From assembly GCA_041738615.1 (NCBI GenBank), contig JBGSPL010000004.1, forward strand, positions 1,203-65,202: a stretch of DNA of 64,000 nt, given 5' to 3'. Under the pieces are notes generated by a model that saw nothing but the letters and a program-made list of their open reading frames with translations, searched no databases and had not been told where the DNA came from. Below, piece after piece: positions 19,278 through 41,283 of this stretch; position 1 is the first letter of the stretch, and every line of letters starts with the position of its first letter. Origin of the DNA: Patescibacteria group bacterium (GTDB taxonomy: Bacteria > Patescibacteriota > CPR2 > UBA1875 > CAIMLA01). The translations under genes were made by a program, and so were the position numbers.

Positions 19278-19655
19278 TTAGCGGAGATTCTTGACGATGG
19301 GCAGTTTGTAGCCCACATACTCCTCGACAGAGATGTAACCGGGGTGTTCTGCGCCTGGACCGGGCGTCGCCACGAGACTGTCAGCAGGTAGCTGGAGGTC
19401 TCTTTGTGGTAATACAAGCTCTGCAGCCCCCTTTACGGGGTAGAGGTTGTGTCCAAGCGAGACCGGCAGCTGGAAACGTTTCCCAGCAGCGGTGACAAGC
19501 GTCATTACCCTTTCACCATTCTCGAAAGTAGTACGAGCAATTCTCGAGACCTGCCAGTAGCGAAGATTCCCCTTCCGGTTGTGAACAAGGGCGTAACCCT
19601 TCCTCGGCGCCTGTGCAGGGACCTTGGCATTTCTGCCCTTGCGCTGATTTGCCAC
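19278..19655 (-). CDS. Hypothetical basic protein, GC-rich (about 56% GC)
   Basis: A 125 aa ORF with a Lys/Arg-rich N-terminus (MANQRKGRNAKVP). Its codon composition differs from the flanking genes. Confidence 0.35.
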   Translation of the reverse strand: MANQRKGRNAKVPAQAPRKGYALVHNRKGNLRYWQVSRIARTTFENGERVMTLVTAAGKRFQLPVSLGHNLYPVKGAAELVLPQRDLQLPADSLVATPGPGAEHPGYISVEEYVGYKLPIVKNLR

Positions 19656-19767
19656 GATATCCCTCCTTCGGGACGAGGTTGTGTAGAGCTGTGATATTGT
19701 ATAACAAAATTAGACTTTTGTAAAGCCTAATATGATGGTGTATTTTATTCGCGGATAATCGGTCTAC

Positions 19768-21093
19768 TTAGTTTAGTTGAACAGAAACAACCGAAACAAT
19801 GTTTGCAACGGCGCTCTCAGCTGCCTCTTTCGTTGCTGCTTCGGCCATGACACGGACTAAGGGCTCTGTTCCGGATGATCGTACTAGTACGCGGCCCAGA
19901 CCAGCCAGCGTCGCTGTTTCTTGCTTGATCGCATCTTGAACGGAGGCATTCATAGCAAGCTCCGATTTCTTGGTGGCGGGTACATTTATAAGAACTTGTG
20001 GATATTTGCACATCACTTTGGCGAGCTCACTCATTGTATTACCGCTTTCTTTGAGCGCAGCGGCAAGCTGGAGGGCGGTGACTAGCCCATCACCAGTAGT
20101 GTTGTGTTCGAGAAAGACAATGTGCCCAGATTGTTCGCCTCCGAAAGTGGCTCCTGTTTCTCTCATCTGCTCTAGTACGTAACGGTCACCAACATCTGTT
20201 TTTACCAAGTGTATACCTAGTTCTTCCATCGCCTTGTCGAGTCCCATGTTTGCCATAACGGTAGTAACAACTGTATTGTTCGCCAGTTTCCCCTGTGTTT
20301 TTAGGTGCCCTGCGCAGATTGCCATGATGTAGTCACCATCGATGGCTTCTCCATTTTCATCCACCGCAAGCACCCGGTCTGCGTCCCCGTCGTGTGCAAA
20401 ACCGAAGTCAGCGTGGGTATTAAGTACCAGCTCAGAAATAGGCCCTAGATTAGTCGAGCCGCAAGCCACGTTGATGTCGTCTCCAGCGTAACTATCGTTG
20501 ATAACGTGTACTTGGACCCCCAGGGCCCTAAAAGCCTCTGGAGTAGCTCTATATGCTGCGCCATGGCCACAATCTATCGCGACTGTAAGGCCAGAAAGTT
20601 CACCCGCGACTGTTGAGACGGCGTGAGTGATGTATCGGTCAGTCGCATCAGCCATATGAGAAGCTGCACGTGAGGTAGTGGGAATGCTGTCTGAATCTAG
20701 ATCTAGGACGTATTTCTCGATTTCTGATTCCTCTGCGTCCGAGAGTTTACCGCCAGCCGCATTGAATAGCTTGATGCCGTTATACTCTGGTGGGTTGTGC
20801 GAAGCGGAGATAACGATACCGCCAGTAGCCCCGGTTTCCTTTATCAGGAAAGCCACCGCGGGAGTCGGAATTACCCCGCAAATTACCGCTTCTACCCCCT
20901 CGCTGTGTAGGCCGGAAATGACTGCATTTTCCAGGTCTTCGCCGCTTCCTCTGGTGTCGCGTCCGATAACGACAGTTCCCTTACCCTTAGCAAGGAATTT
21001 GGCTGCCGCTGCCCCAAGCTTAGTCGTTAGCTCTAGTGTGAGCTCTTCGTAAGCAACACCACGAACGCCGTCTGTACCAAAAAGCTTACCCAT
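19768..21093 (-). CDS. glmM: Phosphoglucosamine mutase GlmM
   Basis: MGKLFGTDGVRG and the active-site loop SASHNPPEYNGIK are GlmM signatures. The start is trimmed to MGKLFG; that ATG overlaps the stop of the upstream Nudix gene (ATGGGTAA). Confidence 0.85.
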   Translation of the reverse strand: MGKLFGTDGVRGVAYEELTLELTTKLGAAAAKFLAKGKGTVVIGRDTRGSGEDLENAVISGLHSEGVEAVICGVIPTPAVAFLIKETGATGGIVISASHNPPEYNGIKLFNAAGGKLSDAEESEIEKYVLDLDSDSIPTTSRAASHMADATDRYITHAVSTVAGELSGLTVAIDCGHGAAYRATPEAFRALGVQVHVINDSYAGDDINVACGSTNLGPISELVLNTHADFGFAHDGDADRVLAVDENGEAIDGDYIMAICAGHLKTQGKLANNTVVTTVMANMGLDKAMEELGIHLVKTDVGDRYVLEQMRETGATFGGEQSGHIVFLEHNTTGDGLVTALQLAAALKESGNTMSELAKVMCKYPQVLINVPATKKSELAMNASVQDAIKQETATLAGLGRVLVRSSGTEPLVRVMAEAATKEAAESAVANIVSVVSVQLN

Positions 21094-21598
21094 GTTTCTT
21101 TTCCAAAAGTTCACGCGCTTTTTCAATGAAGAGCAGGTCTCTCTCGTGAATAAAGATGCTTCGTGGCCCAGTGGGGTGTTCATTCTCGATGGTATTTACG
21201 GCTTTTTCGAGCGGCATCCACTCGAGCGAGAAGTCCTCGGCGATTTCCTTATCTGAAAATTCTGGTCCGCAAACCTTCTTCGTAAGCTCGGCTAGGTAAC
21301 AATAGCTCAGTTGCAAAAACTCGAATTCATCGCGGTATTCAATGATGAGTCCGACTTCGTCTGTAACCTTGACTTCGCAGCCGGTCTCTTCCATTACCTC
21401 GCGTTCCAGGGCTTCCATGATAGACTCGCCCGGGTCGATGCCTCCTCCAGGCAGTTTGTGCATATGATATTTACCGACAAGAAGAAGAGCGATTTCGCCT
21501 TTGTCGTTTGTGACTACTGCTCTTGCCGCTCTTCGTATTTTGTATGATTGTCGCTTTTCTTCGTGGTTCCCGGGGTAGATTTCTTTGATTAGTTCCAT
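21086..21598 (-). CDS. NUDIX hydrolase
   Basis: It carries the Nudix box GGGIDPGESIMEALEREVMEETG. Confidence 0.8.
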   Translation of the reverse strand: MELIKEIYPGNHEEKRQSYKIRRAARAVVTNDKGEIALLLVGKYHMHKLPGGGIDPGESIMEALEREVMEETGCEVKVTDEVGLIIEYRDEFEFLQLSYCYLAELTKKVCGPEFSDKEIAEDFSLEWMPLEKAVNTIENEHPTGPRSIFIHERDLLFIEKARELLEKKHG

Positions 21599-21702
21599 AA
21601 AAATGATTATATCATGGCTATATAGTCTAAGTCTCTGTATTTTAAGGATACCTTTATGGTATATTTACCAGAAATAGCAGATAAGATATTGGAAGAGGGA
21701 CT

Positions 21703-22338
21703 TTGCAGAATCTAGATGCGTATACTTTTGACGATGGGGTGCGTTACTTGCTGGAAATTAGCGCAACACATTTAGTGGCCGACGAGAAACCATTCTTGTT
21801 GGCTGTTGGAGGTGGCGTTGGTTCGGGTAAAAGCTACTTAGCTAGTCGATTGAAAGAGTCTTTAAAAGATCAGGCGGCTCTTATCTCTCAAGATGACTAC
21901 TTCTTCGACAACGAAACCGTCAATCCAGGACGCGAGGCATTTTTCAACTGGGAAAGTCCAGAGACGCTAAATATTGAATTGCTAAACTCCCACATAAACA
22001 GCTTAATAGCAGGGGAGCCGATTGATAGACCGATATACTGTATGGAGACCAGCAGCTGTATGGGGACTACGAAGGTTTTTCCTGCCAAGATAATCATCCT
22101 AGAGGGTACTCACGTGTTGAATCCAAGGTTAATTAAGGCAGATGAGTTCAAAGTATATGTTGACGCATCGGAAAGAACTCGATTGCAAAGGAAGCTGGTC
22201 AGGGACGTGGTGGAGCGGAAAAAAGGTACTGAAGAGTTTGTGAGGGGTTATTATGAAGCGGTGATTAAAGATTCGCACAGACGCTTCGTGGAACCTACTA
22301 AGAATTTTGCCAGGGTACTTATACTTAACGAAGCCTGA
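21703..22338 (+). CDS. Uridine/cytidine kinase-like P-loop kinase (PRK/Udk family)
   Basis: VGGGVGSGKSYLASRL is the P-loop, followed by ISQDDYF. The overall pattern parallels Udk. Confidence 0.6.
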   Translation: MQNLDAYTFDDGVRYLLEISATHLVADEKPFLLAVGGGVGSGKSYLASRLKESLKDQAALISQDDYFFDNETVNPGREAFFNWESPETLNIELLNSHINSLIAGEPIDRPIYCMETSSCMGTTKVFPAKIIILEGTHVLNPRLIKADEFKVYVDASERTRLQRKLVRDVVERKKGTEEFVRGYYEAVIKDSHRRFVEPTKNFARVLILNEA

Positions 22339-22354
22339 AGATCTAATTTTCATT

Positions 22355-22395
22355 GCGCGCGTAAGAAAGTGCCCCGTTACCGGGGCACTTTCGGT
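22355..22395. terminator. Bidirectional terminator hairpin between convergent genes
   Basis: AAAGTGCCCCG-TTAC-CGGGGCACTTT is a perfect stem. Confidence 0.6.
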
Positions 22396-22422
22396 GCCTA
22401 GGGAACGGGGCGTTAGCGCTGC

Positions 22423-22932
22423 CTACTGCAGCCAGTCGATCGTGTAGGTCGTGTTGACGACGATAGCAGTATCACCAGGGCGCTTGCTCATAAGAGCTTC
22501 TGCGAGCGGGGTCTCCTGCGCGAGAACCATGATGGAAACCGGTTCTGCGTCCGGATCGGCGGCGTATTCGATCGGCTTGCCCGCCTTTCCCGGAACGATG
22601 AAGACCAGAAGGTCCCTGTCGCTGCCGGTGCTTGCCAGGACCTTCACAAGTGAGTAGCACTGCACTGTCTCGTGTGGGACCTTGTCCCACCCCTCAGGCA
22701 TGAGAGACATCTCACCGAGAGCTGCCTGGAACTTCGCGGCAGTTTCACGAGCAGCCTTCGCCATGCTCTGTTGCTGGCTCCGGTTGGTGTCGCTTGCGGA
22801 CTCCATCTTGCTGGGATAGCCTGCGGCCTCCTGTTCGAAATAGCGGACCTGATCTTCTGTTTCGGCGACAATCTCTTTGACCGCATCGAGTGCAAGGTCA
22901 AAGATCGCCTTCTTGCTGTATGCCGAAGCCAT
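22423..22932 (-). CDS. GreA/GreB C-terminal-domain-like protein, GC-rich (about 58% GC)
   Basis: The C-terminal VSIMVLAQETPLAEALMSKRPGDTAIVV resembles the GreA FKBP-like domain. A strong AGGAGGG SD precedes it. The composition is anomalous for this genome. Confidence 0.45.
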   Translation of the reverse strand: MASAYSKKAIFDLALDAVKEIVAETEDQVRYFEQEAAGYPSKMESASDTNRSQQQSMAKAARETAAKFQAALGEMSLMPEGWDKVPHETVQCYSLVKVLASTGSDRDLLVFIVPGKAGKPIEYAADPDAEPVSIMVLAQETPLAEALMSKRPGDTAIVVNTTYTIDWLQ

Positions 22933-23112
22933 TTCCGAACCCTCCTGTCGGTTTGGCGTTGACTACATGACAATCAAGAACGATACGCATTATCGCACAT
23001 CTAAAGCCTTATGTCAAGGCTTCTACTTGTTCTTTTTTGTTCCTTTGTAAAGGTTTTTCGGTAAGATTATTATTTTGTAACATATCACGGCAACCAACTG
23101 GAAAGGGGTCTC

Positions 23113-23547
23113 ATGAAAAATTTCGATCTGCCGATAAAGGCGGAAGTGATACCGTACACGAATAAGGGTGGTGACTTCAGATTTCTACTACTGAAAAGAT
23201 GTCCCGAAGATGGCAGCTTCTGGCAACCGGTTACCGGCACACTCGAATCAGATGAATCACTTGTTTCTTGTATGTCCAGGGAAATGCAAGAAGAGGCGGG
23301 GATCTCAGAGAATGATATTTTCCAAATCACGGATTTGCTCCACGTTTTCCATTGGATGAAGAAAGGCGTATATATTACCGAATATGTTTTTGGCGCCGAA
23401 CTTACTAACGAAATTGACGTAAAGCTTAGTGACGAACATACAGATTACAAGTGGTGTTCATACGAAGAAGCGCTGGCCTCTTTGGGGAAAGCGGAAAACG
23501 TGGAATGCTACAAGATCTTTATGCAGAAAATGATGGGTTTACGATGA
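23113..23547 (+). CDS. NUDIX hydrolase
   Basis: It carries the Nudix box GTLESDESLVSCMSREMQEEAGI. Confidence 0.7.
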   Translation: MKNFDLPIKAEVIPYTNKGGDFRFLLLKRCPEDGSFWQPVTGTLESDESLVSCMSREMQEEAGISENDIFQITDLLHVFHWMKKGVYITEYVFGAELTNEIDVKLSDEHTDYKWCSYEEALASLGKAENVECYKIFMQKMMGLR

Positions 23548-25055
23548 ATACAATGATCATTGGGGTCGGGTATCACGCAAGGAGGATTTATCTGCCATAT
23601 CTGATGGAAAATGAAAGTAGGGGCAGTCTGGTCTGCGGTGTAGATATATATTCTCAAAAGGAGAAAATAGCGGAGTATCTGGACACGAGAGGCTATTCGT
23701 TGCCAATGTACTACACTGACGACTTGGAGCAGAACTCGCTTAGTCTGAGCCTGGATAAAATGCTCAAGGAACTTGTTTCAGATTATCATGTCGATAGCGT
23801 CATTATTTCAACAGAGCCGCTAATGCACCACAAGTACGCCAAGTGGGCCCTGGAGAACAATCTCAATGTTCTTATGGATAAACCCGTAACCAGCGAGGAA
23901 GGGGTCTCTGCTGATCTTGTAAAATCCAGAAAGATTGTGAGCGATTTTGACGAACTTTCTGAATTGTACCTACAAAAGAAAGAGAGAGGGCTCGTAGGCG
24001 CATTTTCCTTAATGTCGCAGAGGCGATTCCATCCGGCTTATACCTTAATGAAGAAGAAGCTAAAGGAAGTATTTGAAGCTACAAACTGTCCCGTGACTTC
24101 GATTCAGATATCCCATAGTGATGGGATGTGGAGAACTCCAACAGAGATTATTGAGATGGATTATCACCCATACAATCAGGGTTACGGGAAAATCTCTCAC
24201 TCCGGGTACCATAGCTTGGATATGTTGAATTGGCTCCAGGATTTTGCTGGGACTGGCGAAAAAGCGTATGACAGGGTGGAAGTTACTAGTAATTTTGTCC
24301 GGCCTGTAGATTTTTTGTCGCAGATTACTCTTTCGGATTACCGTCGGATATTTCCAGATTTTGATAAATATAACAAATATACAGAAGACGAGTTCTGTAA
24401 GGCGACTGAGAATTATGGCGAGATAGATGCTTTTTGCTCGATAGCCTTTAAAAAGGGTGAAAAGACGCTCTGTCTCGGAAGCTTGAATGCGATGCACAAC
24501 GGTTTTTCGCAACGAGGTTGGTTGGATTCTGAGGGCAGAGATCTCTATAAAGGAAATGGTAGAATACGCCAGGAATCATATTTTATCGAACAGGGGCCGT
24601 TTCAATCGATTTCATTTATATCTTACCAGTCCAAAGAAATTAATCCCGATAATAACCAGAGTGTCTATGCGTTTGGGGGTGAAAGGCATTTAGATATACA
24701 TGTATTCCGCAATAACGGAATCTATCCTCAGTGGAAGACCCATGAGGTTTTTAGTATCAAAGATATCTCGCAGGAATTTATGACAGGATATTCAAGAGGT
24801 CATCAGGAAGACGCTAGAATTGCTTGTATTGTAGACTTCTACGAATCCATCTCGGCGGGGCGCGATACACAATCTGATCTGCTAGATCATCATAAGGGCA
24901 CCTATCTATTGTCGGCTATTTACGAGTCTGAGATACTGAAACGGAGTGGAGGTAACCCAATGGTACAGGTAAATATCGCCGATAAAAAGGCTCAAGAAGT
25001 CGACTATGTATATGAGAAAACAGAGTCAGAATTTGCGACACCTGCCTTTGCCTAG
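23544..25055 (+). CDS. Gfo/Idh/MocA-family NAD(P)-dependent oxidoreductase with long C-terminal extension
   Basis: MIIGVGYHARRIYLPYL is the Rossmann N-terminus, followed by STEPLMHHKYAKWALENNLNVLMDKPV. The start is set at the MNTMII ATG, which overlaps the upstream stop (ATGA). Confidence 0.65.
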   Translation: MNTMIIGVGYHARRIYLPYLMENESRGSLVCGVDIYSQKEKIAEYLDTRGYSLPMYYTDDLEQNSLSLSLDKMLKELVSDYHVDSVIISTEPLMHHKYAKWALENNLNVLMDKPVTSEEGVSADLVKSRKIVSDFDELSELYLQKKERGLVGAFSLMSQRRFHPAYTLMKKKLKEVFEATNCPVTSIQISHSDGMWRTPTEIIEMDYHPYNQGYGKISHSGYHSLDMLNWLQDFAGTGEKAYDRVEVTSNFVRPVDFLSQITLSDYRRIFPDFDKYNKYTEDEFCKATENYGEIDAFCSIAFKKGEKTLCLGSLNAMHNGFSQRGWLDSEGRDLYKGNGRIRQESYFIEQGPFQSISFISYQSKEINPDNNQSVYAFGGERHLDIHVFRNNGIYPQWKTHEVFSIKDISQEFMTGYSRGHQEDARIACIVDFYESISAGRDTQSDLLDHHKGTYLLSAIYESEILKRSGGNPMVQVNIADKKAQEVDYVYEKTESEFATPAFA

Positions 25056-25158
25056 GCACAAAATATTCAAAGAATGTGAATAACAGGTAAATTCTTCAGA
25101 AATATTCCTTATGATACTTTTGCTTTAAGTAATAAACTCTGTCCATGCCAAGGTAATA

Positions 25159-26157
25159 ATGCTGAGGCAGCTCCTTGAAAGGGGGGAAGTAAAGGTGAAC
25201 GCAGCCAATGATTCGCTCAGGGTTCGTGTTACACCGTATTGCAACCTGAATTGTGACTTCTGTCACGAAGAAGGAGGCGATGCGTCTTGTCCGATTTCGC
25301 TCAGCCAGGTGGTGGAGATAACCAAGTTCGCACATGAGCATGGTTTCAACAAGTTCCACTTGACCGGCGGCGAACCAAGCTGTCATCCGGAGCTCGTTGG
25401 AATCGTCCGCATCATTACGGGTGCTGGATTCCCGTGTGGTATCACGACCAATGGGCAGTTTCGCTCTTCGCTCCTCGCGGAGCTGAGAGATGCCGGTGTG
25501 ACTAGCCTGAACTTCTCCATTCACACAGTAGACCCTGCCGCTTGGGCTCAGGTCCAGCAGCACTCTGATACCAGAAAGGCCGCAGCCCAGATTTCTCGGG
25601 CAATCGAGAATATGAAGCAGTCGGTCGCACTTGGAATCAGGACGAAGGTCAACATCGTGGTTGGTGAAGACGCAGCACAGGCCATCGGAGTTATTGAGGC
25701 CCTGCGTGGCTCTGGAGTTGAAATCCGACTCCTTAGCTTGCTTGGTTCAAATGACTCGCTTATCAACCTCGATTACCTCCTCGGACATTACGAGGCGGAA
25801 ATCGTCGATGAGATGCGAGTTCTCGACTCCAGCCAGTACCGTTCGACGTACAACAGCACCGCTGGCGTTCTCGTGGTGAAGAACATTCACCCGCATCGCG
25901 AACTTGCAGTCTGCAAGGGCTGCAAAGAGAACTGCCTCGAAGGCTTCTACGGCGTACGTCTGATACCGATGGAGGAAGACATTCTTGTCCGCCTTTGTAT
26001 CCACCGCACCTGTGAGAACACACTGATGTCTCTTTCGGCTTTCGCCGAAGGGCCTCAGCTCAGTGCACTCAAGTCACGCGGCGGACTCAATTGCAACCAC
26101 CAGGAGGTGAGTCATGAAGGCTACAACCTCACAGGAGCACGCATTTGTAGTGCTTGA
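25159..26157 (+). CDS. Radical SAM enzyme, MoaA-like (GTP 3',8-cyclase family fold)
   Basis: CNLNCDFC is the CX3CX2C cluster motif. LTGGEPS, ITTNG and LRDAGVTSLNFSIHTVDP parallel MoaA. A C-terminal CKGC...RLIPMEEDILVRLC resembles the MoaA auxiliary-cluster CxxC-x13-C motif. The gene is GC-rich. Confidence 0.8.
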   Translation: MLRQLLERGEVKVNAANDSLRVRVTPYCNLNCDFCHEEGGDASCPISLSQVVEITKFAHEHGFNKFHLTGGEPSCHPELVGIVRIITGAGFPCGITTNGQFRSSLLAELRDAGVTSLNFSIHTVDPAAWAQVQQHSDTRKAAAQISRAIENMKQSVALGIRTKVNIVVGEDAAQAIGVIEALRGSGVEIRLLSLLGSNDSLINLDYLLGHYEAEIVDEMRVLDSSQYRSTYNSTAGVLVVKNIHPHRELAVCKGCKENCLEGFYGVRLIPMEEDILVRLCIHRTCENTLMSLSAFAEGPQLSALKSRGGLNCNHQEVSHEGYNLTGARICSA

Positions 26158-26674
26158 GGGCATCGACATTCGAGGCAAGACAACAGTCAGTCGGGAGCTC
26201 GCAGAGGTCATTGGCGCAACTTTGGTCAAGACCCCTGTATCGCCGGTGGCCGAGTTCCGCAAGGTTTACGACTGCTGTGAGAACTACGACGCACGGTACC
26301 TGTACTACATGAGCTCCTTGGTTCTGGCCTCGGTCGAAATCACTGAGCTTCTGAAGTCTGGTCCCGTAGTCTGCGACAGGTGGCTGCATTCGGCCGTTCT
26401 CTATCACAAGGCTCTCGGTGTTGACACCTCTATGGTGAACATCGAAAGGCTCCACCTTGCCGTTCCGTCGCTCACGGTCTGTCTGGTCTGCGACGCATCG
26501 GTTGCAGCAGAGAGATTTCGCCAGCGTGGCGAAAACAAGGACGACAACATCGAGGACAACAAAGGTTTGCTGGCCACCGTCGACCGCTTGATGCAAGAAT
26601 CCATCCTCGCACAGGTCGACACGAGCTTCACGACGGCAAGTGAAGCGGCGCTGCAAATCGCAGCGATGCTCTAG
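26114..26674 (+). CDS. Thymidylate-kinase-family P-loop kinase (paralog 1)
   Basis: VVLEGIDIRGKTT is the P-loop, CDRW is a DRY-like motif, and the Arg-rich LID reads RFRQRGENKDD. A strong AGGAGG SD precedes it. It overlaps the 3' end of the radical SAM gene by 44 nt. Confidence 0.65.
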   Translation: MKATTSQEHAFVVLEGIDIRGKTTVSRELAEVIGATLVKTPVSPVAEFRKVYDCCENYDARYLYYMSSLVLASVEITELLKSGPVVCDRWLHSAVLYHKALGVDTSMVNIERLHLAVPSLTVCLVCDASVAAERFRQRGENKDDNIEDNKGLLATVDRLMQESILAQVDTSFTTASEAALQIAAML

Positions 26675-26754: not shown

Positions 26755-27267
26755 ATGAATTCAGAAATAGAAAAAAAGTATAAGATTAATACCTACGAAA
26801 AGGCAAAAGAAGAGATTATTGCTTTGGGGGCAAGTCATCTTTCGACCACCACTGACGTAGATGTATATTTTCTGGTTCCCCAGGCAATCCCAAACACACG
26901 TTATCTTCGTGTTAGAACAAAGGGCGGTAAGAATACTTTGGCTTATCACGAAGTAGTTGACGATCTAGAAACTAAGGAATGGGAAGTTGATGTTTCAGAC
27001 GCTGATGTAACCCATGATATCGTCGAAAAACTTGGTTTTGCTGAAGAGGTTGTGGTCAAGAAAACACGTGAGACTTATACCCTTGGAGATAGCGAAATAC
27101 TTGTCGATTGTATAGATGGCTTAGGGCACTTCGTAGAAATCGAGTCACCTGATGTAGTTTCTCTGGATAAAATTGCGGGAAAAATAACTCTTGGGGACCA
27201 GATTGTTGGCAAGGGGTATCCAGACTTAGTAAAAGAAAAGAGTGCGCATGAGACAGCCGTTAAATAG
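26755..27267 (+). CDS. CYTH-domain protein (triphosphate tunnel metalloenzyme / class IV adenylyl cyclase-like)
   Basis: The N-terminal EIEKKYKI (ExExK) and the later FVEIE acidic strand are CYTH hallmarks. The gene is AT-rich. Confidence 0.55.
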   Translation: MNSEIEKKYKINTYEKAKEEIIALGASHLSTTTDVDVYFLVPQAIPNTRYLRVRTKGGKNTLAYHEVVDDLETKEWEVDVSDADVTHDIVEKLGFAEEVVVKKTRETYTLGDSEILVDCIDGLGHFVEIESPDVVSLDKIAGKITLGDQIVGKGYPDLVKEKSAHETAVK

Positions 27268-28966
27268 TGACGTCCTAAGAGCAAAGAATAAGACTCTATA
27301 TCGGAGTTTTTTTTCTAATTACGACTTCGTTGTGTCGTCACCAGGAGGAGCTATTCTGGCCGGAACTTTTACGGATCATGTCGGGGGCCCTGGATTGCAC
27401 CAAAAAGTTCCTCTAAGAAACTACCTCGGTGTAAAGATAATCGAGAAGAACGATATCATCTTTGAAAACTACGGAACTTATGATTATTTTACTAATTCCT
27501 TTATTATTTTAGATGTAAAAAAAGAGAATATCGGCAAGTTGAGGCTTTTGAGGGAAATGATTTCGCTGAAGCTGGGGAGAGAGATAGGCCTTAGCGTCGG
27601 GATTCTGAATGAAATTCCAAGAAGGACCGGTCTAAATAACCCAGGCACAAATGCTGCCAATCTTACGGCTGCATATTTGTTACTCACAGAGCAAATCACA
27701 GCAAGGGATCTGGATGACTTTCAGAATCTGACAGTAGATTTTGATTCGAAAAAGCGGAATCTGATCAAAGCCACAGCGAAAAAATTCCATTCGGTTTGGC
27801 TCAATAGGAAGAGTGCTGGATTCGGAGTCCTATCTAGCTTAGTCAATCGATCAGACATTCTGGTTTATAACCCTGCTGCCGATTACCCTGTAGTTCCGAT
27901 AGCTGAAATATTTTCTCAAGAGAGCTTTCAAGAACTGCCTTTCGATGTAGTAATAATCGGCACCTCGGATAGATATGACATAGACTTTTCACTGCGAAAA
28001 TACGATGAAGTCGGTAATATCTTTTCGATTACTAATGAGGATGTAACCAAGTTTGATAAAGGATTCGGCCTTGATGAACCTGAGATTGATGACTTCCCAG
28101 CAGCGCTTTGTAAAAGTTATTTTGACGTTGCCAGTACAACGGGACTTGCCACAGTAATAGCGGTGGGCAAGTTTATCAAGGACCCGAGCATAGAAAATCA
28201 GAGAATTTGTTTGCAGTTGTTTAACAGTTCATACGACATGATCAATCTTTTCGGGCAGAATTTTTCTCGCAAAAATAAGGTGCATTCATTTGTGAAGAAA
28301 TACTATTACGAGGTTCTTTCCGATATGCCGTTTGCAATCACTACTGGTATTACGAACAACCTCGCATTAGTCACACCAAAGGAGTCCTCGAGGCAAGACC
28401 TCTCAGCACTCGTGGGCTATCTAGAGAGAAAGCTAGGTTTTGATATCTCCTATCCATATATTTCATGGATAGACGACTCGGACAACAAGGGAGCGGTTGT
28501 GGAGAAATGGGATGATCAGGGGATCCAAGCTGCTTACATCCAAAGGAATTGCCTGAACCTTTACAGTGTTCATACTATGGACGTGATACCTATGGTTACG
28601 GCCATAGACAACCGGGAGGGTCTCGAAAAAACATACGACATCCTTTTTGACGAAGACGATAAAAAGATATTCATCAACGGGAAGAAAGTAACATCGAAGG
28701 AATTACCAACAGTGGCGGCGACACTCAGTCTGTTTAATCTGCTAACTCAGACTGAGGACTTTGAGATATCGTCAGAAAAGTTGCCGGACCAATCATATTT
28801 CCAAGACAGAAACGAGCTCCAGAGTAAAATCGTAAGCCCGCTAAGAATTTATGTAGAAAAAGAACTAAACAAACACATCAACTTGAAGATAAGCGGAACG
28901 CTTTCTGAATATAAAGTGACACTATTTCCTTCTGATATTTCAGTCGGAGTTATCAGACGTTGCTAG
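27242..28966 (+). CDS. Large GHMP-kinase-like protein (N-terminal GHMP-like domain with degenerate P-loop + unknown C-terminal half)
   Basis: SSPGGAILAGTFTDHVGGPG resembles GHMP motif 1 (PGRVNLIGEHTDY). GLNNPGTNAANLTAAY is a degenerate version of motif 2, and KSAGFGVLSSLV of motif 3. The protein is 574 aa and overlaps the CYTH gene. Confidence 0.35.
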   Translation: MRMRQPLNSDVLRAKNKTLYRSFFSNYDFVVSSPGGAILAGTFTDHVGGPGLHQKVPLRNYLGVKIIEKNDIIFENYGTYDYFTNSFIILDVKKENIGKLRLLREMISLKLGREIGLSVGILNEIPRRTGLNNPGTNAANLTAAYLLLTEQITARDLDDFQNLTVDFDSKKRNLIKATAKKFHSVWLNRKSAGFGVLSSLVNRSDILVYNPAADYPVVPIAEIFSQESFQELPFDVVIIGTSDRYDIDFSLRKYDEVGNIFSITNEDVTKFDKGFGLDEPEIDDFPAALCKSYFDVASTTGLATVIAVGKFIKDPSIENQRICLQLFNSSYDMINLFGQNFSRKNKVHSFVKKYYYEVLSDMPFAITTGITNNLALVTPKESSRQDLSALVGYLERKLGFDISYPYISWIDDSDNKGAVVEKWDDQGIQAAYIQRNCLNLYSVHTMDVIPMVTAIDNREGLEKTYDILFDEDDKKIFINGKKVTSKELPTVAATLSLFNLLTQTEDFEISSEKLPDQSYFQDRNELQSKIVSPLRIYVEKELNKHINLKISGTLSEYKVTLFPSDISVGVIRRC

Positions 28967-29020: not shown

Positions 29021-29167
29021 ATTCAGTTATATTCCTTACTAAAGGCAATAATTAAACATTAACATTACGATAAGCAGAAGCAATCCGGCCAATGCTGTTC
29101 CTTGAAAGGGATTTCAGGTAATCGGTGCGATAAACACGATACCACGACCATCAACTGGAGGTGCGAA

Positions 29168-29722
29168 ATGTACGAGAACACATTGTTTCCGTTCGTAGTA
29201 CTCGAGTCGATTGATGGTTGTGGAAAGACTTCCATCAGCCATAATCTTGCAAGCATCTTGGGGGCCACTCTGGTAAAGTCTCCAGTAGAGCCCCTCGATG
29301 CCTTTCGTAAGGTCTACGATGACTGTGGCAACTACACGGCACGGTATTTGTACTACCTGAGCACTCAGGTTGTTTCATCAGCGCGTATTGCAGAGCTGCG
29401 AAAGAGCGGCCCTGTAGTATGTGACCGTTACCTGCCATCGACTGTACTATATCACCGGGCATTCGGTGTCGACACCTCGGTGGTTGATACCGATAAGCTC
29501 GGGCTCGAAATCCCTTCACTTATGGTCTGCCTTACCTGCCGTGAGGATATCCGTTGGGAACGGATTTGTTCTCGGGGCGAGGATAAGGATGACCATATCG
29601 AGGACAACCTGGCCCTGCTTGCAAAAGTAGATAAGATGATGAGGCTCGAAATCCCTCTTCACGTCGACACAAGCTTTACAACACCTCGCGAGGCTGCGTT
29701 GCAGATTGCTGCCATGCTCTAG
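29168..29722 (+). CDS. Thymidylate-kinase-family P-loop kinase (paralog 2, about 60% identical to paralog 1)
   Basis: It has VVLESIDGCGKTS, CDRY, an LID ending RGEDKDDHIED, and the same C-terminal EAALQIAAML as paralog 1. The start is trimmed to MYENT, which has a GGAGGTG SD. Confidence 0.65.
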   Translation: MYENTLFPFVVLESIDGCGKTSISHNLASILGATLVKSPVEPLDAFRKVYDDCGNYTARYLYYLSTQVVSSARIAELRKSGPVVCDRYLPSTVLYHRAFGVDTSVVDTDKLGLEIPSLMVCLTCREDIRWERICSRGEDKDDHIEDNLALLAKVDKMMRLEIPLHVDTSFTTPREAALQIAAML

Positions 29723-31430: not shown

Positions 31431-31434
31431 CCGG

Positions 31435-34475: not shown

Positions 34476-34540
34476 AAATTCTCCTTTTCCTAATTTTAGC
34501 ACGAAGTATGTTGGTAAGTCAGGAAAAAGCCAAAGAGCAA

Positions 34541-35044: not shown

Positions 35045-35047
35045 AGC

Positions 35048-36224: not shown

Positions 36225-36519
36225 CTTTCTTTAATAATTATGATTTATTGATTAGTTGAAAAAGTCCGTCCGTTTTCTGTATCTGGTCCGGGTACTTCTC
36301 AGTAAGCTTCCAGACAGTTCCGTTGATAGTTTTGGGATGAAATGTCGGATTTGCGGTTTCAATCATTCTGTTTAGGTTAGACCAGCTTATTCCCTCTGGG
36401 TGTTGTTTCAGAAGTTCGAATATTTGTGCGGTTATCTGACCTGTGATCGTAGTCGGTTTCATGCGTATATTATACTCCAAACCAAAAAGAAACACCCGTG
36501 TGGGTGTTTCTTTTTGGTT

Positions 36520-36702
36520 CTAGAATACTTGAGCAAGTATCCAGGCGGCTATAGCGAGTGCTATAAAGAACAGACCTAGCCCTACTGGTGAGCCCCAGCT
36601 GAACCAGGAACCCCAGGCGCGCCAATGTTTCATCGAAGATTCATCGGCATCCTTCCAGGCCTTGTACTCCGCAAGCTGTTCTTCCAGAGGTTTTTTAGCC
36701 AT
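36520..36702 (-). CDS. Small Trp-rich single-TM protein
   Basis: A 60 aa ORF with a C-terminal TM helix. Its coding status is uncertain. Confidence 0.25.
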   Translation of the reverse strand: MAKKPLEEQLAEYKAWKDADESSMKHWRAWGSWFSWGSPVGLGLFFIALAIAAWILAQVF

Positions 36703-37218
36703 AGTAGACTCCTTATTAAGTTAATAATGAGCCTCTATATATGTTTGCCAGTAGCAATTTGTTCTCGAGGCGAAGATTGCCGTAGGTCTGGTCTTAATAA
36801 CAAGGTAATTATAGCACAAAATTTCGCATAATAATGGCCTCAAGCTACGACCGCTCAAGCAAAGGTTTGCTTATGGGTATATAATATATATAGGTATAGA
36901 GAACTTAAGTTAAAGAAAGGAGACCCAATGAGCCTTGAAGGCATATTTTTCATGTCTCTTAGTATGCAGGCAATCATCGTCTCGGTATTCTTTCTGATGT
37001 TGACGTATTTCTTAGTGAGATCAATGCGTGAGATACGGGCGATAAACAAGAAGGTCCTAGAAGCGGCCGAGGAAAGTGCAGAGCTCGCCGGTAAGGCAAA
37101 GGAGTTTATCGGCAAGATCGGCAAGTCAGTAGTCGACTATTTTGTCATTAAGTTACTAGATAGCGTGAAAAGAAAAAATAAATAAATAATGCCCGATTTT
37201 TCGGGGAAAGGAACTATC

Positions 37219-37569
37219 ATGGAAGCAAAAGATTTCGCCAAAGGCGCTATAGTAGGTGCTATTGCAGGGGTACTGGGGGGTGTGTTACTCGCACCAAAAT
37301 CAGGTGAGGAAACGAGAGATGACATCACTAGTAAGTTCAACGAAATTAAAGATATAGTGATTGAAAAAATGGAAGACGTTAGCGATTTTTCGAAGGACGT
37401 CTATGACCGAATCGTCGGTGAGACGCTAGCTAGCTTTGAAGCTGCAAAGAAGATCGCCCCCGAAGACGCCAAGAAGATTTCAGAAATCTTCGAAAAGAGT
37501 TTTGCAGATATAGAGAAGATTCTCGAGAAAGACGCAAAAAAGGTTGCGGAACCCCTGAAGAAAAAGTAG
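37219..37569 (+). CDS. YtxH-like (DUF948) protein
   Basis: GAIVGAIAGVLGGVLLAPKSGEETRDD is the YtxH signature. The start is set at MEAKD, which has an AAAGGAAC SD. Confidence 0.6.
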   Translation: MEAKDFAKGAIVGAIAGVLGGVLLAPKSGEETRDDITSKFNEIKDIVIEKMEDVSDFSKDVYDRIVGETLASFEAAKKIAPEDAKKISEIFEKSFADIEKILEKDAKKVAEPLKKK

Positions 37570-37596
37570 GTCAGTATATACGAGCTGCAAACAAAG

Positions 37597-37621
37597 AAAA
37601 GTGCCAGGAATGGCACTTTTT
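37597..37621 (+). terminator. Rho-independent terminator after the YtxH-like gene
   Basis: AAAGTGCCA-GGAA-TGGCACTTTTT is a stem-loop with a U-run. Confidence 0.7.
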
Positions 37622-37706
37622 GATTAGGGGCGTATATTAGAGCCTAGGATTAACTTTAGCGAAGTTACATGTTCCATTTGGCGAAGCGGTATACGCCAAG
37701 GCTAAC

Positions 37707-38405
37707 TTAATTAGGCGAGGATAGAATATTTCTTACCGTAGCATGGCCGAGTACGTCCATGGTATCGAAAATTTCTACCTTATCACTCTTTGGTAATAGA
37801 AGCTGTAAGTCTGTGCAGGCAAGAGCCACGCCATCTACGCCTTTATTTACTAGGTCATCGACCACGGTGAGCACGAGTTCCCGATCACTGTTTAGATGCT
37901 GACCCTCAACTAGTCGCAGAATGATCTTGTCCATCTTGGCCTTTTGCAGGTCGTCTGGAGTAACGAAGCTAATGTTACTTTCAGCCAGCTTGTCCTCGTA
38001 GATGTGGTTAGCAATGGTAGCGGAGGTCGATATCAGTCCGACATTGACCATGTTGTTTTCTTTTAGGTAGCTGATAGTTTCCTCAATGATACTTAGCACA
38101 GGAATCTTTACCGCCGCGCGAATCTCGGAGATAAAGACATGTAGGGAATTACAGGGCATCACTATGAAGTCGACACCGCTCTTCTCAAGTCTCTGCGCTT
38201 CTGCTATCAGAAAAGGGATATACCTTTCCTTACCCGTATTGGACTCTATCAGGTCGCGCTCTATCTCAAAAGGCAGCGGTATACTTGCTATCACTACAGA
38301 AGGTCGCTGAATCTTATTCTGTTTCTGGCACTCGAAGATAACTCTCAGGTAAAACTCTGAGGTTGTCTCCGGGCCGACTCCACCAATAATTCCGACTGAT
38401 TTCAT
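37707..38405 (-). CDS. Asp/Glu/hydantoin racemase family protein (aspartate racemase-like)
   Basis: It has MKSVGIIGGVGPETTSEFY and two conserved Cys regions. The start is trimmed to MKSVG. Confidence 0.75.
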   Translation of the reverse strand: MKSVGIIGGVGPETTSEFYLRVIFECQKQNKIQRPSVVIASIPLPFEIERDLIESNTGKERYIPFLIAEAQRLEKSGVDFIVMPCNSLHVFISEIRAAVKIPVLSIIEETISYLKENNMVNVGLISTSATIANHIYEDKLAESNISFVTPDDLQKAKMDKIILRLVEGQHLNSDRELVLTVVDDLVNKGVDGVALACTDLQLLLPKSDKVEIFDTMDVLGHATVRNILSSPN

Positions 38406-38506
38406 AATGTTAGTATAACAAAACAGCGTCATTTCTGACACTGTTTCCTATCGGAACTCTTTTAGTTCCATATTGTTCTATTTGGCGAAGCGGGAATCGC
38501 TTGAAA

Positions 38507-39307
38507 TTACTTGTTAAAGGAAAGTAGGTACTTTGTAGTTGGGATAGAGAACAGTAAACAGAGGAAACCGAAAACGTAGGCTATACTCATGTCAGTTGGA
38601 AGGCCTCTATATCCTACAAAGTAAATTATAAATGCGATATTTATCATCATAATTAGCGCAAACACTATGGATGCACCAGCTAGGATATAACCGATGTCTT
38701 TCCCCTTTTTCAGGTAGTAGCCAGAAAGTATTAGTAGGGGTAGACAGAGAGCCAGGTCGATAACGTATACACCGTTTGTGAATAAGCCAGCCTCTAGGAC
38801 GCTCTGAGGCGTAGTCCCAGCGAGCAAATTAGGGATGATGTCTTTTAGCCAAACTAGGTAGAATATAACGCCCAAGAATATAAGCGAATTAGCAACGAAC
38901 TTCCTTGACCAATTTTCGGTAAAGGTGCCATTTATGTTCATAAAATCAGACGTTGCCATCGAAAATATAAACAAATATGTACTTATTCCAAGGGCTGAAA
39001 GATAAAGTAGAAACATGGGGTTAAAATGAACCATGAAAGTGTAGATTAGATATGAATAGATCGTAAATACAAGAGTCCCTAGCCAGATTAACTTGGCGGC
39101 CAAACTACCTTTATAGGCAAGAAAAGAGGAAACCAAGATAGCCGGTACAGCGATTATCGTGTTTATCCAGTCCTGGGCCATACTCTGAGCAACCCAATTT
39201 AGAGTTTCTTGCGAATAGGCATTCGGAACAAATAAACCATAGATGGCGGTGGTAGCAACTATTGCAGCCAGAACTAACGACCAGACCAGATAGCTTTTTT
39301 TAAACAC
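38507..39307 (-). CDS. Polytopic membrane protein of unknown function
   Basis: A 266 aa protein with about 8 TM helices. Confidence 0.4.
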   Translation of the reverse strand: MFKKSYLVWSLVLAAIVATTAIYGLFVPNAYSQETLNWVAQSMAQDWINTIIAVPAILVSSFLAYKGSLAAKLIWLGTLVFTIYSYLIYTFMVHFNPMFLLYLSALGISTYLFIFSMATSDFMNINGTFTENWSRKFVANSLIFLGVIFYLVWLKDIIPNLLAGTTPQSVLEAGLFTNGVYVIDLALCLPLLILSGYYLKKGKDIGYILAGASIVFALIMMINIAFIIYFVGYRGLPTDMSIAYVFGFLCLLFSIPTTKYLLSFNK

Positions 39308-39634
39308 AAAAATCCTTTCTATTTATCAATAAGATTTTATCATAAAGTTCTTAGCAATTAGTACTAAAAGCGTTATCAATAGAAATAAGCTACCATACGG
39401 TAGCTTATCAAGTATGTTCTATTTGGCGAGCCAACCCTGTCATGTACCCACCACCTCTTACCTTACCCCCTACTAGAGATTCTGATGATTCTGCGAGAAA
39501 ATGAGACGAGACAAATGAGACAGTCCCCAGACTATTTGGAGTTTGTCTCAAAATGAAGAAGCCACCTCGGGAGAACCGAGTTCTTAGGGGTTAACCCAAG
39601 GTGGTTCTTCGTTGGTGGCTTTTGGCCGAGAGTG

Positions 39635-40342
39635 CTAGGACTTGCCTTGCGCCTCCAGGAACTGCTTGCCATGACCGAGATCGGTCCTGACAGGGTCGTT
39701 CTTGGCGCACAGGGGACATTCCGCCGCATCCCAGGCCGGATACTGACGATCGCAGAGTGAGAAGAGGTTGTCGACTCCGAGATCTTCGGCGGTAACTCCG
39801 CCACGATTCCAGAGATCGGCAACACCCCAGATGTCCTCGCCGCCGAGACAACGTACCAACTCGACGAGCTTCTTCGCGCTTCCGCCAGTGTTGAGGACGT
39901 CTTCGACGATCAGAACGCGCTGCTGGGGGTCAATGAACTTCTGCAACCCGCCTCGGACGAACAGCCTGGTCTTCAGAACCGAGTTGGCGCGCCCGGCGAC
40001 CATGCCTGGCTCTTTGTCGATGAACGGCTCCTTCTCCGCGAAGATCGCGTAGGTAGGCCGCTCGCTCACCTCGGTGATCCAGTCGGCGACATAGCTGGCC
40101 AAGATCGCTCCAACCGGAGCAATGCCGATGACCGTGTCGATCTGATCGCCGGAGACTTCCTCCGCGATCATTTCGGCCAAGTCCTCTACGGCGCGCGTTG
40201 ACGGGAAGACGAGATCCTTCGCGACGTACGCCTCGCCATGCTTGCCTGAGGTGTAGACGAAGTGCCCAGTCTCGAGTGCGCCGAGCCTTTCAAACAGCTC
40301 GATCACGTCTGACTGGTCGGACAGACTTCTAGTCTTATCCAT
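39635..40342 (-). CDS. pyrE: Orotate phosphoribosyltransferase-like type I PRTase, GC-rich
   Basis: VLIVEDVLNTGGSA is the PRPP-binding motif, and LGALETGHFVYTSGKHGEAYV is an OPRT-like N-terminus. GC content is about 60%. Confidence 0.55.
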   Translation of the reverse strand: MDKTRSLSDQSDVIELFERLGALETGHFVYTSGKHGEAYVAKDLVFPSTRAVEDLAEMIAEEVSGDQIDTVIGIAPVGAILASYVADWITEVSERPTYAIFAEKEPFIDKEPGMVAGRANSVLKTRLFVRGGLQKFIDPQQRVLIVEDVLNTGGSAKKLVELVRCLGGEDIWGVADLWNRGGVTAEDLGVDNLFSLCDRQYPAWDAAECPLCAKNDPVRTDLGHGKQFLEAQGKS

Positions 40343-40359
40343 CTTTCAGTACCTCCCTG

Positions 40360-41088
40360 CTAGTAGATGGCGATCTCGTCGACGATCTTCTCGAGGTTCT
40401 CCGCGGGGACGCCGTTGGTTATCGGGCGTCCGATGACCAGACGAGTGGCACCAGTCGCGATTGCGGCCGATGGAGTATCAGATCGGGCCTGATCGCCCTT
40501 GTCTGAACCAGCCGGACGAATGCCCGGTGTGTTCAGCGAGAGCTCGTCAAAGCGGCGTTCGGCCCGAATCGCGGCGATCTCCTGGGGAGAGCATACGATG
40601 TCCGTAAAGCCGCTGAAGAGCAACGCTTCGGCGTAGTAGAGCACTTGCTCGACCGGCGTGCGATAGTTGAACTCGCTCGCCACCACCTTGGGGGACTTGC
40701 TGGTCAACACGGTTACCCCGCAGGGCTTCGTACCGGCCTTGTGGCAAGCGTCGGCGAAGCGCTTCAGCGCTTCCTGCAGATTGGGATCATCGGCCGACAG
40801 GATGCCGGTCGACTGGGCGCCCGCCATGCAGTTCAGCATGTAGGGCTTGTGCTTCAAGTGCTTCTCGGCAAGACCAACGAGCTTCGTTGGGATCTCGATG
40901 AGCTTGGCGTCGTCAAACACCTTGATCCCACGATCGTTCAGGCGGTCGATGACTCCGAGTCCGATGTCGGTCACGAACAAGCGGTCGATCTTGACGATGC
41001 GCAGATTGGGCATGAGGTCGAGTGCAGCCATCAAGGCCGCCTCGTCCACCACATCTGCACTCCAGATGATACGATCAAGCGGGTCCAT
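40360..41088 (-). CDS. pyrF: Orotidine-5'-phosphate decarboxylase-like, GC-rich
   Basis: FDDAKLIEIPTK corresponds to the DxKxxDIP motif. LNTPGIRPAGSDKGDQARSDTP...LVIGRPIT parallels the PyrF C-terminus. An AGGAGGG SD precedes it. Confidence 0.55.
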   Translation of the reverse strand: MDPLDRIIWSADVVDEAALMAALDLMPNLRIVKIDRLFVTDIGLGVIDRLNDRGIKVFDDAKLIEIPTKLVGLAEKHLKHKPYMLNCMAGAQSTGILSADDPNLQEALKRFADACHKAGTKPCGVTVLTSKSPKVVASEFNYRTPVEQVLYYAEALLFSGFTDIVCSPQEIAAIRAERRFDELSLNTPGIRPAGSDKGDQARSDTPSAAIATGATRLVIGRPITNGVPAENLEKIVDEIAIY

Positions 41089-41283
41089 TTGATCCCTCCT
41101 CTTTCAGCTTCTCCCGAAGCTTGACGTCGATTCTCTGCCTTTAGACAGCTAGCTAACTCCAACAGGTTAGAGGCAATTAGCTGTCTAAAGAAATGTATAG
41201 GTACAAAAAGGATCCACAAACATGGACCCTCCGATATGGTTGAGATAATAACACAAATAGCTTGTTTTTTGAAGAGTTTAAGC

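Follow-up and report, generated by a model that had tools for sequence, protein, structure and literature searches.

What keeps a handful of genes GC-rich in an AT-richer genome, and does such a composition mark them as recent arrivals? The question is raised by a stretch of 64,000 nucleotides (hereafter the window) from a Patescibacteria group bacterium (assembly GCA_041738615.1, contig JBGSPL010000004.1, positions 1,203 to 65,202 of the forward strand). Six of its genes are GC-rich: a pyrF-like gene and an adjoining phosphoribosyltransferase gene (PRT; the two together are called the pyr cassette), genes for a Gre-like protein, a radical SAM protein (rSAM) and a kinase (kinase 1), and a gene for a small basic protein. 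An initial annotation, made from the sequence alone, had regarded them as likely acquisitions from a high-GC donor, with an actinobacterial host as an obvious candidate. Our data suggest another answer. These genes may be long-standing members of the Saccharibacterial gene pool, in which the GC-rich state would be old, gene-specific and actively maintained, and they would not be un-ameliorated recent imports from Actinomycetota. The probability of this explanation as a whole is put at roughly 0.6, and its narrower statement, that the state is old and maintained and does not reflect a recent actinobacterial import, is held with good confidence. The units concerned would be the pyr cassette, three genes of a nucleotide-related five-gene module, and the small basic protein as an orphan.

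Composition of the GC-rich genes

The window has a GC content of 0.446, and its 67 open reading frames (ORFs) have a median GC content at third codon positions (GC3) of 0.476 with a robust standard deviation of 0.074. It was found that the genes singled out by the initial annotation do stand out from their neighbours: four have a GC3 of 0.70-0.78 (z +3 to +4), where chance would give about 0.1 of 67 genes at z >= 3, and two are weaker outliers at about 0.60. In window positions they are as follows.

22423-22932, minus strand: Gre-like gene; GC 0.580, GC3 0.700, z +3.0
26114-26674, plus strand: kinase 1, a Thymidylate-kinase-like P-loop kinase; GC 0.560, GC3 0.695, z +3.0
39635-40342, minus strand: PRT, pyrE_Therm-like; GC 0.600, GC3 0.758, z +3.8
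40360-41088, minus strand: pyrF-like gene, orotidine monophosphate (OMP)-decarboxylase-like; GC 0.602, GC3 0.782, z +4.1; the highest-GC gene of the window
25159-26157, plus strand: MoaA-like rSAM; GC 0.542, GC3 0.607, z +1.8; weaker outlier
19278-19655, minus strand: basic protein, 125 aa; GC 0.561, GC3 0.595, z +1.6; weaker outlier

The excess extends to the other codon positions, as GC at first and second positions (GC1 and GC2) is 0.59-0.65 and 0.40-0.44 in the outliers against about 0.50 and 0.35, and the content of glycine, alanine, arginine and proline (GARP) in the encoded proteins is 0.22-0.36 against a proteome median of 0.21. A log-likelihood of codon choice, scored with the codon usage of the window itself, had no discriminating power, as this usage is nearly flat. 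The boundaries, earlier described as sharp, were found at the ends of the coding sequences (CDSs), inside an operon too. GC in 200-bp windows climbs to 0.60 at about 39.5-39.6 kb, from 0.34-0.46 before, and is back to 0.40 at about 41.1 kb, and kinase 1 (0.56) is followed only 80 bp on by a CYTH gene of 0.405. No Rfam RNA lies beneath the GC-rich loci.

Conservation in a sister genome

The evidence that bears most directly on the age of the GC-rich state comes from a sister genome (L054, GCA_964501135.1), which is syntenic with the window over 11-34 kb, with orthologues 63-98% identical. The Gre-like, rSAM, kinase 1 and basic protein genes lie at syntenic positions of this genome, where tblastn located rSAM and kinase 1, with GC3 values of 0.71, 0.65, 0.73 and 0.66 respectively against 0.39-0.53 in its neighbouring genes; in the comparison with the window, neighbouring genes range over 0.34-0.59. 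The encoded proteins are 68.5% (rSAM), 63% (kinase 1) and about 75-78% (basic protein) identical between the two genomes, and a 574-aa protein of the same region is 65% identical. The Gre-like protein has a single close homologue among 5.8 billion proteins, namely the L054 orthologue (P0131), with 72% identity. At four-fold sites of conserved residues the identity between the window and L054 is 0.29-0.60, mostly about 0.40, against 0.25-0.29 for random sequence, so that synonymous sites are near saturation. The proposed donor origin of the non-pyr genes is thus not sustained, since all four are conserved, syntenic and equally GC-rich in L054.

Differences in gene content between the two genomes lie elsewhere. 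They comprise the genes listed below together with kinase 2, a second kinase gene described in the next section, and all have an ordinary GC of 0.43-0.51.

21703-22338: uridine-kinase-like gene
23113-25055, plus strand: NUDIX gene and gene for a 534-aa GFO/IDH/MocA-type oxidoreductase (Pfam); GC 0.43; no L054 counterpart

The NUDIX-oxidoreductase pair is a window-specific insertion which parts the Gre-like gene from rSAM; in L054 these two are divergent neighbours 170 bp apart. Two of the four loci that had been counted as discrete are in this way one module, split by a later insertion of normal GC. The most atypical genes here are the conserved ones and the genes truly gained or lost are of ordinary composition, and therefore island calling based on composition would mislead in these genomes.

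Two side observations were made in this comparison. The Gre-like pair (22423-22932 in the window, 10001-10510 in L054) has the highest four-fold identity of all, 0.60 against about 0.40, while its protein identity of 72% is among the lower ones, which suggests either synonymous constraint or recent exchange together with fast protein evolution. In addition, the public annotation of L054 has two ORFs of 212 and 300 aa at 8280-9792 that are spurious and run antisense to rSAM and the kinase. GC-rich genes of low-GC genomes of the candidate phyla radiation (CPR) can thus be missing or wrong in protein databases, and the absence of a protein hit, for example of a pyrF in the sister genome, is weak evidence.

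A five-gene module

The Gre-like gene, rSAM and kinase 1 are three members of one conserved five-gene module. The other two members, and a kinase paralogue that follows them in the window, are the following.

26755-27267, plus strand: CYTH protein; GC 0.405; Pfam CYTH 55 bits, NCBIfam cyaB 71 bits (above the cutoff of 58)
27242-28966, plus strand: 574-aa protein; GC 0.416; a collinear homologue in metagenome locus L056 is 42-45% identical; no Pfam, NCBIfam or PDB match
29102-29722, plus strand: kinase 2, Thymidylate-kinase-like paralogue; GC 0.507; Pfam Thymidylate_kin, PADLOC PDC-M51B 82 bits; no separate copy in L054

The rSAM matches Pfam Radical_SAM with 79.7 bits. Its best NCBIfam model is the archaeal MoaA (111 bits, cutoff 325), another MoaA model scores 94 (cutoff 284), and its profile matches 8wm2 (94 bits) and MoaA (1tv7, 90 bits) in the PDB, with viperins at about 35 bits. 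It has the motif CNLNCDFC, conserved C-terminal cysteines C252, C255, C259 and C280, and an 'RLC' motif. Assignment to the prokaryotic viperins (pVip) was considered and rejected: PADLOC pVip matches cover only residues 22-170, the radical SAM core, with no full-length viperin match, the NCBIfam viperin model scores 51 bits against a cutoff of 180, and MoaA fits better. The family is small, with 20 cluster representatives at E <= 1e-30 of which the best are 52-54% identical, and tblastn against plasmids and phages returned only remote matches (at most 35% identity, mostly 22-29%). Kinase 1 matches Pfam Thymidylate_kin with 51 bits and TIGR00041 with 53 bits, below its cutoff of 83; in PADLOC it scores 92 bits with PDC-M51B and 49 bits with VakA.

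The single Gre-like sequence is sub-threshold against Pfam GreA_GreB (E 0.015). The profile of its family (alignment A3) matches Gfh1 (2etn) over positions 12-154 with E 3.8e-7 and GreA (1grj) with E 4.6e-4, and its M-E-S-x-x-D aligns with the acidic coiled-coil tip of Gfh1. By these profile matches the gene is a full-length Gre-factor (Gfh1/GreA) homologue. The first label, 'GreA-C-like', is extended accordingly, and the other labels (OMPdecase, Pribosyltran, Radical_SAM, Thymidylate_kin, CYTH) were essentially right.

Among 54 metagenome loci, rSAM adjoins CYTH in most, a TMK-like kinase often and a Gre-like gene sometimes. In L056 (1591-5537) the order is rSAM, Gre-like, TMK, CYTH and the 574-aa protein, collinear with the window. 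Remote Gre-like homologues adjoin rSAM in L056, L065, L075, L081 and L082, and the homologue P0134 is a fusion of a radical SAM and a Gre-like part. BLASTP of the window protein against this fusion is not significant, and the link exists at the profile level only. Related module loci mostly have a GC of 0.28-0.40 on their metagenome contigs, so that no high-GC donor is in view for the module. The step in composition within the module recurs at this lower level: in L056 the rSAM, TMK and Gre-like genes have 0.40-0.43 GC against 0.29-0.30 in CYTH and the 574-aa protein, and GC3 of rSAM exceeds that of CYTH in 23 of 26 loci, where the step is weaker than in L056. The recurrence of the step points to a gene-specific cause.

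The gene content suggests that the module may make a modified nucleotide, probably a purine, which would act, or confer immunity, through the secondary channel of RNA polymerase. No literature on an rSAM-CYTH-Gre module was found, and the set of rSAM, kinase, CYTH, Gre-like and 574-aa proteins appears to be undescribed. Two of the GC-rich loci would therefore belong to an undescribed module of CPR-like low-GC genomes, one that links nucleotide chemistry to a secondary-channel factor of RNA polymerase.

The pyrimidine cassette

The pyrF-like protein matches Pfam OMPdecase (PF00215) with 80.5 bits, above the cutoff of 27, and falls below the NCBIfam cutoffs of PRK00230 (118 bits, cutoff 193) and TIGR01740 (71, cutoff 92). 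Its best PDB matches are canonical OMP decarboxylases (OMPDCs; E 1e-21), with which the region 'PGIRP...DQ.R..TP...G...VIGRPIT' aligns. D60 and K62 are invariant in the family, and the third acidic position is changed from D to E65 throughout. The PRT matches Pfam Pribosyltran with 31.7 bits, above cutoff, and has the phosphoribosyl pyrophosphate (PRPP) loop VLIVEDVLNTGGS. It is below the cutoffs of NCBIfam TIGR01367 pyrE_Therm (91 bits, cutoff 150) and pyrE (44, cutoff 107), and its matches to orotate phosphoribosyltransferase structures in the PDB are weak. The pyrF-adjacent PRTs of the nearest relatives are 55-88% identical among themselves, and the window PRT is 34-39% identical to them; it is by this comparison a divergent partner of pyrF. 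Nucleotide homology of the window pyrF to its relatives is restricted to 40366-41089, its own CDS, and reaches at most 74% identity, to the Saccharimonadia metagenome-assembled genome (MAG) L002.

In several relatives pyrD lies directly upstream of the cassette. It was suggested earlier that a lone pyrF/pyrE pair points to orotate salvage or an acquired partial pathway. Orotate salvage is plausible from the gene content, and pyrF and PRT, in some relatives with pyrD, would probably turn host-derived orotate or dihydroorotate into UMP. Comparative genomics has reported Saccharibacteria to be without nucleotide synthesis (PMC11659515). No literature was found on Saccharibacterial pyrE/pyrF or on GC-rich genes in Saccharibacteria. 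An inverted repeat (41139-41190) precedes the pyrF start by about 50-100 bp; its 25-nt arms are 80% complementary and 2 nt apart, and it could be an operator or terminator.

Distribution of pyrF and direction of transfer

The pyrF-like protein has about 3,600 homologues, and a genome scan yielded 52 loci. It was observed that 47 of the 52, with identities of 40-72%, are Saccharibacteria/CPR or unclassified, mostly labelled Saccharibacteria; at least 45 are Saccharibacteria/CPR. The remaining five are true high-GC Actinomycetota: four Solirubrobacterales (flank GC 0.70) and one MAG of Mycobacteriales, with TgpA, DinB and carbonic anhydrase encoded in its flanks. L007 is a true high-GC, non-CPR contig. 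The GC of pyrF exceeds that of its flanks in 45 of the 47 non-actinobacterial loci (median +0.06, and +0.107 in 28 loci of an environmental clade; Wilcoxon p 1.7e-9). Among 827 ORFs of pyrF loci, 25 of the 49 GC3 outliers are pyrF or PRT. A slot TatD-MetRS-[pyrF-PRT]-trehalase is kept in five genomes whose MetRS proteins are only 65-76% identical, and there the cassette has a GC3 of 0.66-0.90 (pyrF 0.69-0.90) against 0.39-0.65 in the flanks. In L112 the trio pyrD-pyrF-PRT has a GC3 of 0.72-0.81 against 0.43-0.53 in its flanks.

The cassette is also found in changing surroundings. Nucleotide homology between L002 and L112 (78.8%) is limited to a cassette of 2.5 kb, which thus behaves as a discrete unit in differing contexts. 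These contexts often include defence genes, which the cassette adjoins in three different genomes. In L112 (4566-5165) and L113 (5121-5720) the genes pyrD-pyrF-PRT are followed closely on their downstream side by a ThsB-like TIR gene (Thoeris). In an animal-associated Saccharibacteria clade (L032, L034, L036, L038, L040, L043, L044) a canonical PyrE upstream of pyrF replaces the downstream pyrE_Therm-like PRT, and the GC excess of pyrF is small (median +0.03). Scans of viral contigs with the pyrF alignment, the rSAM alignment and kinase 1 gave no matches, and carriage of the GC-rich genes by phages has no support.

The actinobacterial homologues are 68-71% identical to the window pyrF. With two canonical OMPDCs of known structure as the root, a neighbour-joining tree has all five actinobacterial copies inside one shallow subclade (97% of 300 bootstraps). 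A tree of 171 sequences puts the high-GC-type sequences in a single short-branched nested clade; about 13 of the 171 are of this type, in one shallow nested clade plus one singleton. The Solirubrobacterales pair is an isolated two-gene operon among typical actinobacterial genes with a GC3 of 0.85-0.91 and is fully ameliorated, so that amelioration is fast relative to protein divergence. Because the actinobacterial copies are nested in shallow clades, transfer would have run from the epibiont lineage to the host phylum. Read most simply, these trees describe a Saccharibacterial pyrF family that passed to Actinomycetota at least twice. The actinobacterial link drawn by the initial annotation stands in so far as Saccharibacteria and Actinomycetota have exchanged the pyr cassette, but donation into the epibiont does not, as the direction was most probably outward. 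Nested actinobacterial clades suggest gene flow from an ultrasmall epibiont to its host phylum, the reverse of the usual assumption, and such flow bears on the prediction of hosts from horizontal transfer.

Proposed maintenance of the GC-rich state and alternative explanations

How could single coding sequences remain GC-rich over such divergence? A G+C-biased force would hold these CDSs near the composition of a genome of about 60% GC. We favour a fixation bias specific to these genes. It could consist in selection that acts on the coding sequence or on the mRNA, or else in GC-biased gene conversion tied to recurrent recombinational exchange of the cassette; as the maintaining mechanism, either candidate is put forward tentatively. 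Should the pyr cassette owe its GC excess across Saccharibacteria to active maintenance, it would be an unusually strong case of gene-specific compositional equilibrium. A more specific and rather doubtful version ties the force to the epibiont-host relationship: the pyr cassette, and possibly rSAM, the kinase and the Gre-like gene, would be held at about 60% GC in epibionts of 40-55% GC, for instance because the cassette circulates between Saccharibacteria and actinobacterial hosts and is selected to function, or to escape restriction or silencing, in both. If true, the partners of the episymbiosis would share a genetic element whose passage from epibiont to host phylum is documented.

Several points weigh against an old and maintained state. 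The maintaining force is inferred, and gene conversion is known to shift the GC3 of bacteria by far less than +0.3. The L054 locus ends before the pyrF/PRT region, and the sister comparison covers the four non-pyr genes. A close relative of the window PRT was not found among the pyrF-adjacent PRTs compared, no dedicated protein search having been made. The genome scan for pyrF used two peptide motifs and may under-sample divergent actinobacterial members, both pyrF trees are neighbour-joining trees on 243-244 columns, and the grouping of the window with Solirubrobacterales as sisters has only 30% bootstrap support. By a rough estimate, the GC excess of a relic would have fallen in each lineage to about 0.4 of its initial value since the split from L054, and it is borderline possible that rSAM, the kinase and the Gre-like gene are relics from a donor with a GC3 of at least 0.9 that arrived just before this split. 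A further point is the dinucleotide signature of the cassette. It was measured as the GC-normalised distance delta* against a background of 81 windows of 1.5 kb (68 +/- 21, maximum 132). The PRT and pyrF-like genes (pyrE+pyrF) have a delta* of 165 and rSAM with kinase 1 of 147; neither the Gre-like gene nor the basic protein departs significantly from the background (size-matched fractions of 0.10 and 0.65). The pyrE+pyrF signature is 62-97 from Solirubrobacterales flanks against 165-171 from its own background, and 109-239 from Saccharibacterial flanks. When the proteins were kept and the window's codon preferences tilted to the same GC3, the simulated genes were 144 +/- 16 from Solirubrobacterales and 90 +/- 16 from their own background. 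The cassettes of L052 and L031 likewise have a Solirubrobacterales-like signature. A past in high-GC genomes would be expected to leave such a signature; it may also be generic to high-GC coding sequences, Solirubrobacterales being the only high-GC reference used.

These values would fit a shuttle or reservoir, in which the cassette, perhaps with the other GC-rich genes, resides mostly in high-GC Actinomycetota, is repeatedly passed to Saccharibacteria and keeps a composition near that of the reservoir. The signatures of the window, L052 and L031 cassettes are nearer to the flanks of Solirubrobacterales than to the genomes in which the cassettes lie, and the matched simulation fails to account for this. 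Composition at each of the three codon positions looks to be in equilibrium at about 60% GC. The cassette is present in both phyla, and it behaves as a discrete unit in surroundings that are unrelated, often beside defence or mobile genes. A further GC3 outlier in another Saccharibacterium would fit as well, namely a PurH-like gene (AICARFT_IMPCHas) of the Microsaccharimonas MAG L041 (8876-9949), with 0.83 against a locus median of 0.48. On the other hand, a reservoir should have left the high-GC type spread over the family, and this type is confined to the few loci and the shallow clade and singleton described above. The window pyrF is closer in nucleotides to the Saccharibacteria-type gene of L002 (74%) than to those of Solirubrobacterales (69-71%), and a deep clade keeps the cassette in a fixed chromosomal slot. 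For rSAM, the kinase and the Gre-like gene the relatives lie on low-GC contigs, and the signature of rSAM with kinase 1 is atypical and not Solirubrobacterales-like. We consider the reservoir unlikely, though it is the alternative that best survives.

The reading of the initial annotation, in which each locus is a separate and fairly recent import from a high-GC, probably actinobacterial donor and is not yet ameliorated, could rest on the atypical GC, GC3 and dinucleotides with their sharp boundaries, on the position of pyrF beside a variable mobile region, and on actinobacterial homologues at 68-71% identity. It has become very improbable. The sister orthologues are syntenic and equally GC-rich at near-saturated synonymous divergence, two of the loci are one module whose other genes are AT-rich, and high-GC organisms supply no homologue nearer than those of Saccharibacteria/CPR, among which the actinobacterial pyrF is nested. 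The best matches of the GC-rich genes fall in the lineage of the flanking genes, the very outcome that the initial annotation had named as refuting a high-GC donor. No integrase or tRNA directly borders the GC-rich loci: the only tRNA (17334-17406) is at least 1.9 kb from any of these genes, a serine recombinase lies 16 kb from pyrF within the bordering defence/mobile region, and the 12-nt direct repeat that surrounds pyrE/pyrF is no more than chance would give.

Translational selection, that is, very high expression with GC-ending preferred codons, would agree with an excess that is strongest at third positions, where C3 (0.35-0.45) lies above G3. It is similarly remote. Ribosomal protein S1 and MetRS have no GC3 offset in Saccharibacteria loci, and the pilin, NDK and ABC-F genes of the window have a GC3 of 0.42-0.55. 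GC1, GC2 and amino-acid composition are shifted too, and a third-position tilt fails to reproduce the dinucleotide signature. Finally, a chimeric assembly or binning error that inserted foreign high-GC fragments is hardly conceivable, since MAG contigs can be chimeric but nothing specific points to it here, the identical sequence in two independent assemblies (an NCBI contig of 218,941 bp and Logan) shows that the GC pattern is no assembly artefact, the sister MAG has the same arrangement, and the steps in GC fall exactly at CDS ends within an operon.

Other features of the window

The basic protein (19278-19655) has no family match in Pfam or NCBIfam. Further genes of the window include a type IV pilus operon, BacA, NDK, GlmM and several NUDIX proteins and kinases. 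The CPR/Saccharibacteria-like context proposed at first is supported by the pilus operon, by neighbours shared with the Saccharimonadia MAG L002 and by the Saccharibacterial type of pyrF, and on these grounds the organism is probably a member of Saccharimonadia. Two regions follow the cassette.

41284-54080, minus strand: variable defence region bordering pyrF; GC 0.38-0.42; Zn-ribbon protein, Hypoth_Ymh, AspBHI/Mrr nuclease, Dcm methylase, Menshen MzaB-E
54481-58968, plus strand: mobile-element remnant; ParB-N fused to N6/N4 methylase, helix-turn-helix (HTH) protein, large-terminase-like protein, serine recombinase (Pfam)

The defence region was annotated with Pfam on the identical Logan contig. 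The Menshen genes lie in 42546-54080 (PADLOC bits: MzaB 262, MzaC 457, MzaD 63, MzaE 276), and this defence island (GC 0.38-0.40) has a native-like dinucleotide signature (delta* 26-66). In L002, homologues of the ParB-methylase, HTH and terminase-like genes lie 5-8 kb from its own pyr cassette, together with an S24 repressor-like gene. The Zn-ribbon protein adjoining pyrF (41284-42372) has a 34% identical homologue in L002 (13302-15457) right after a reverse transcriptase, an arrangement that resembles a retron- or DRT-like defence pair; next to the window copy there is no reverse transcriptase. Elsewhere in the window, tRNA-Arg(CCT) at 17334-17406 overlaps the 5' extension of the longest HAD-hydrolase ORF (16723-17514). 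The sister orthologue has 195 aa, so translation probably begins only beyond the tRNA.

Comparison with known systems

The GC-rich genes resemble genomic islands in the sense of Lawrence-Ochman amelioration, as they deviate in GC, GC3 and dinucleotides with sharp boundaries, and pyrF/PRT lies at the edge of a variable defence/mobile region and in differing contexts in relatives. They differ from such islands in being syntenic in the sister, in having their nearest homologues in the same lineage and in a deviation that outlasts the time of amelioration, whereas the demonstrably variable neighbours are not GC-rich. GC-biased gene conversion, or recombination-associated enrichment of GC3, was reportedly described in bacteria by Lassalle and colleagues in 2015. 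The enrichment of GC3 in seemingly exchanged genes and the shift of all codon positions, as under a fixation bias, are alike. The effect in the window (+0.2 to +0.4 GC3) is far above what has been reported, and it stops at CDS ends.

In comparison with PyrF, PyrE and PyrD, the cassette has the domains, the PRPP loop and most catalytic residues, pyrF and PRT adjoin, and pyrD is upstream in several relatives. The scores are far under the equivalog cutoffs (118 against 193 and 91 against 150), the third acidic residue of D-x-K-x-x-D is Glu in the window family, the remaining de novo pathway is not in view, and the PRT is only 34-39% identical to the usual partner. With the Gre factors (GreA, GreB, Gfh1, Rnk) the Gre-like protein shares a full-length profile match, the acidic tip and the C-terminal domain. 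It differs in falling below the Pfam gathering threshold, in evolving fast (72% identity between the genomes against 78-98% for neighbouring genes) and in being linked to, and once fused with, a radical SAM protein; to our knowledge no Gre factor has been linked or fused to a radical SAM enzyme. The pairing of an rSAM of the MoaA/viperin branch with a TMK-like kinase, together with partial PADLOC matches to pVip and VakA, recalls the pVip/VakA system and MoaA. The viperin profiles cover the radical SAM core only and remain below the NCBIfam cutoffs, MoaA is a better match yet far below its cutoff, and the CYTH, Gre-like and 574-aa partners belong to neither known system.

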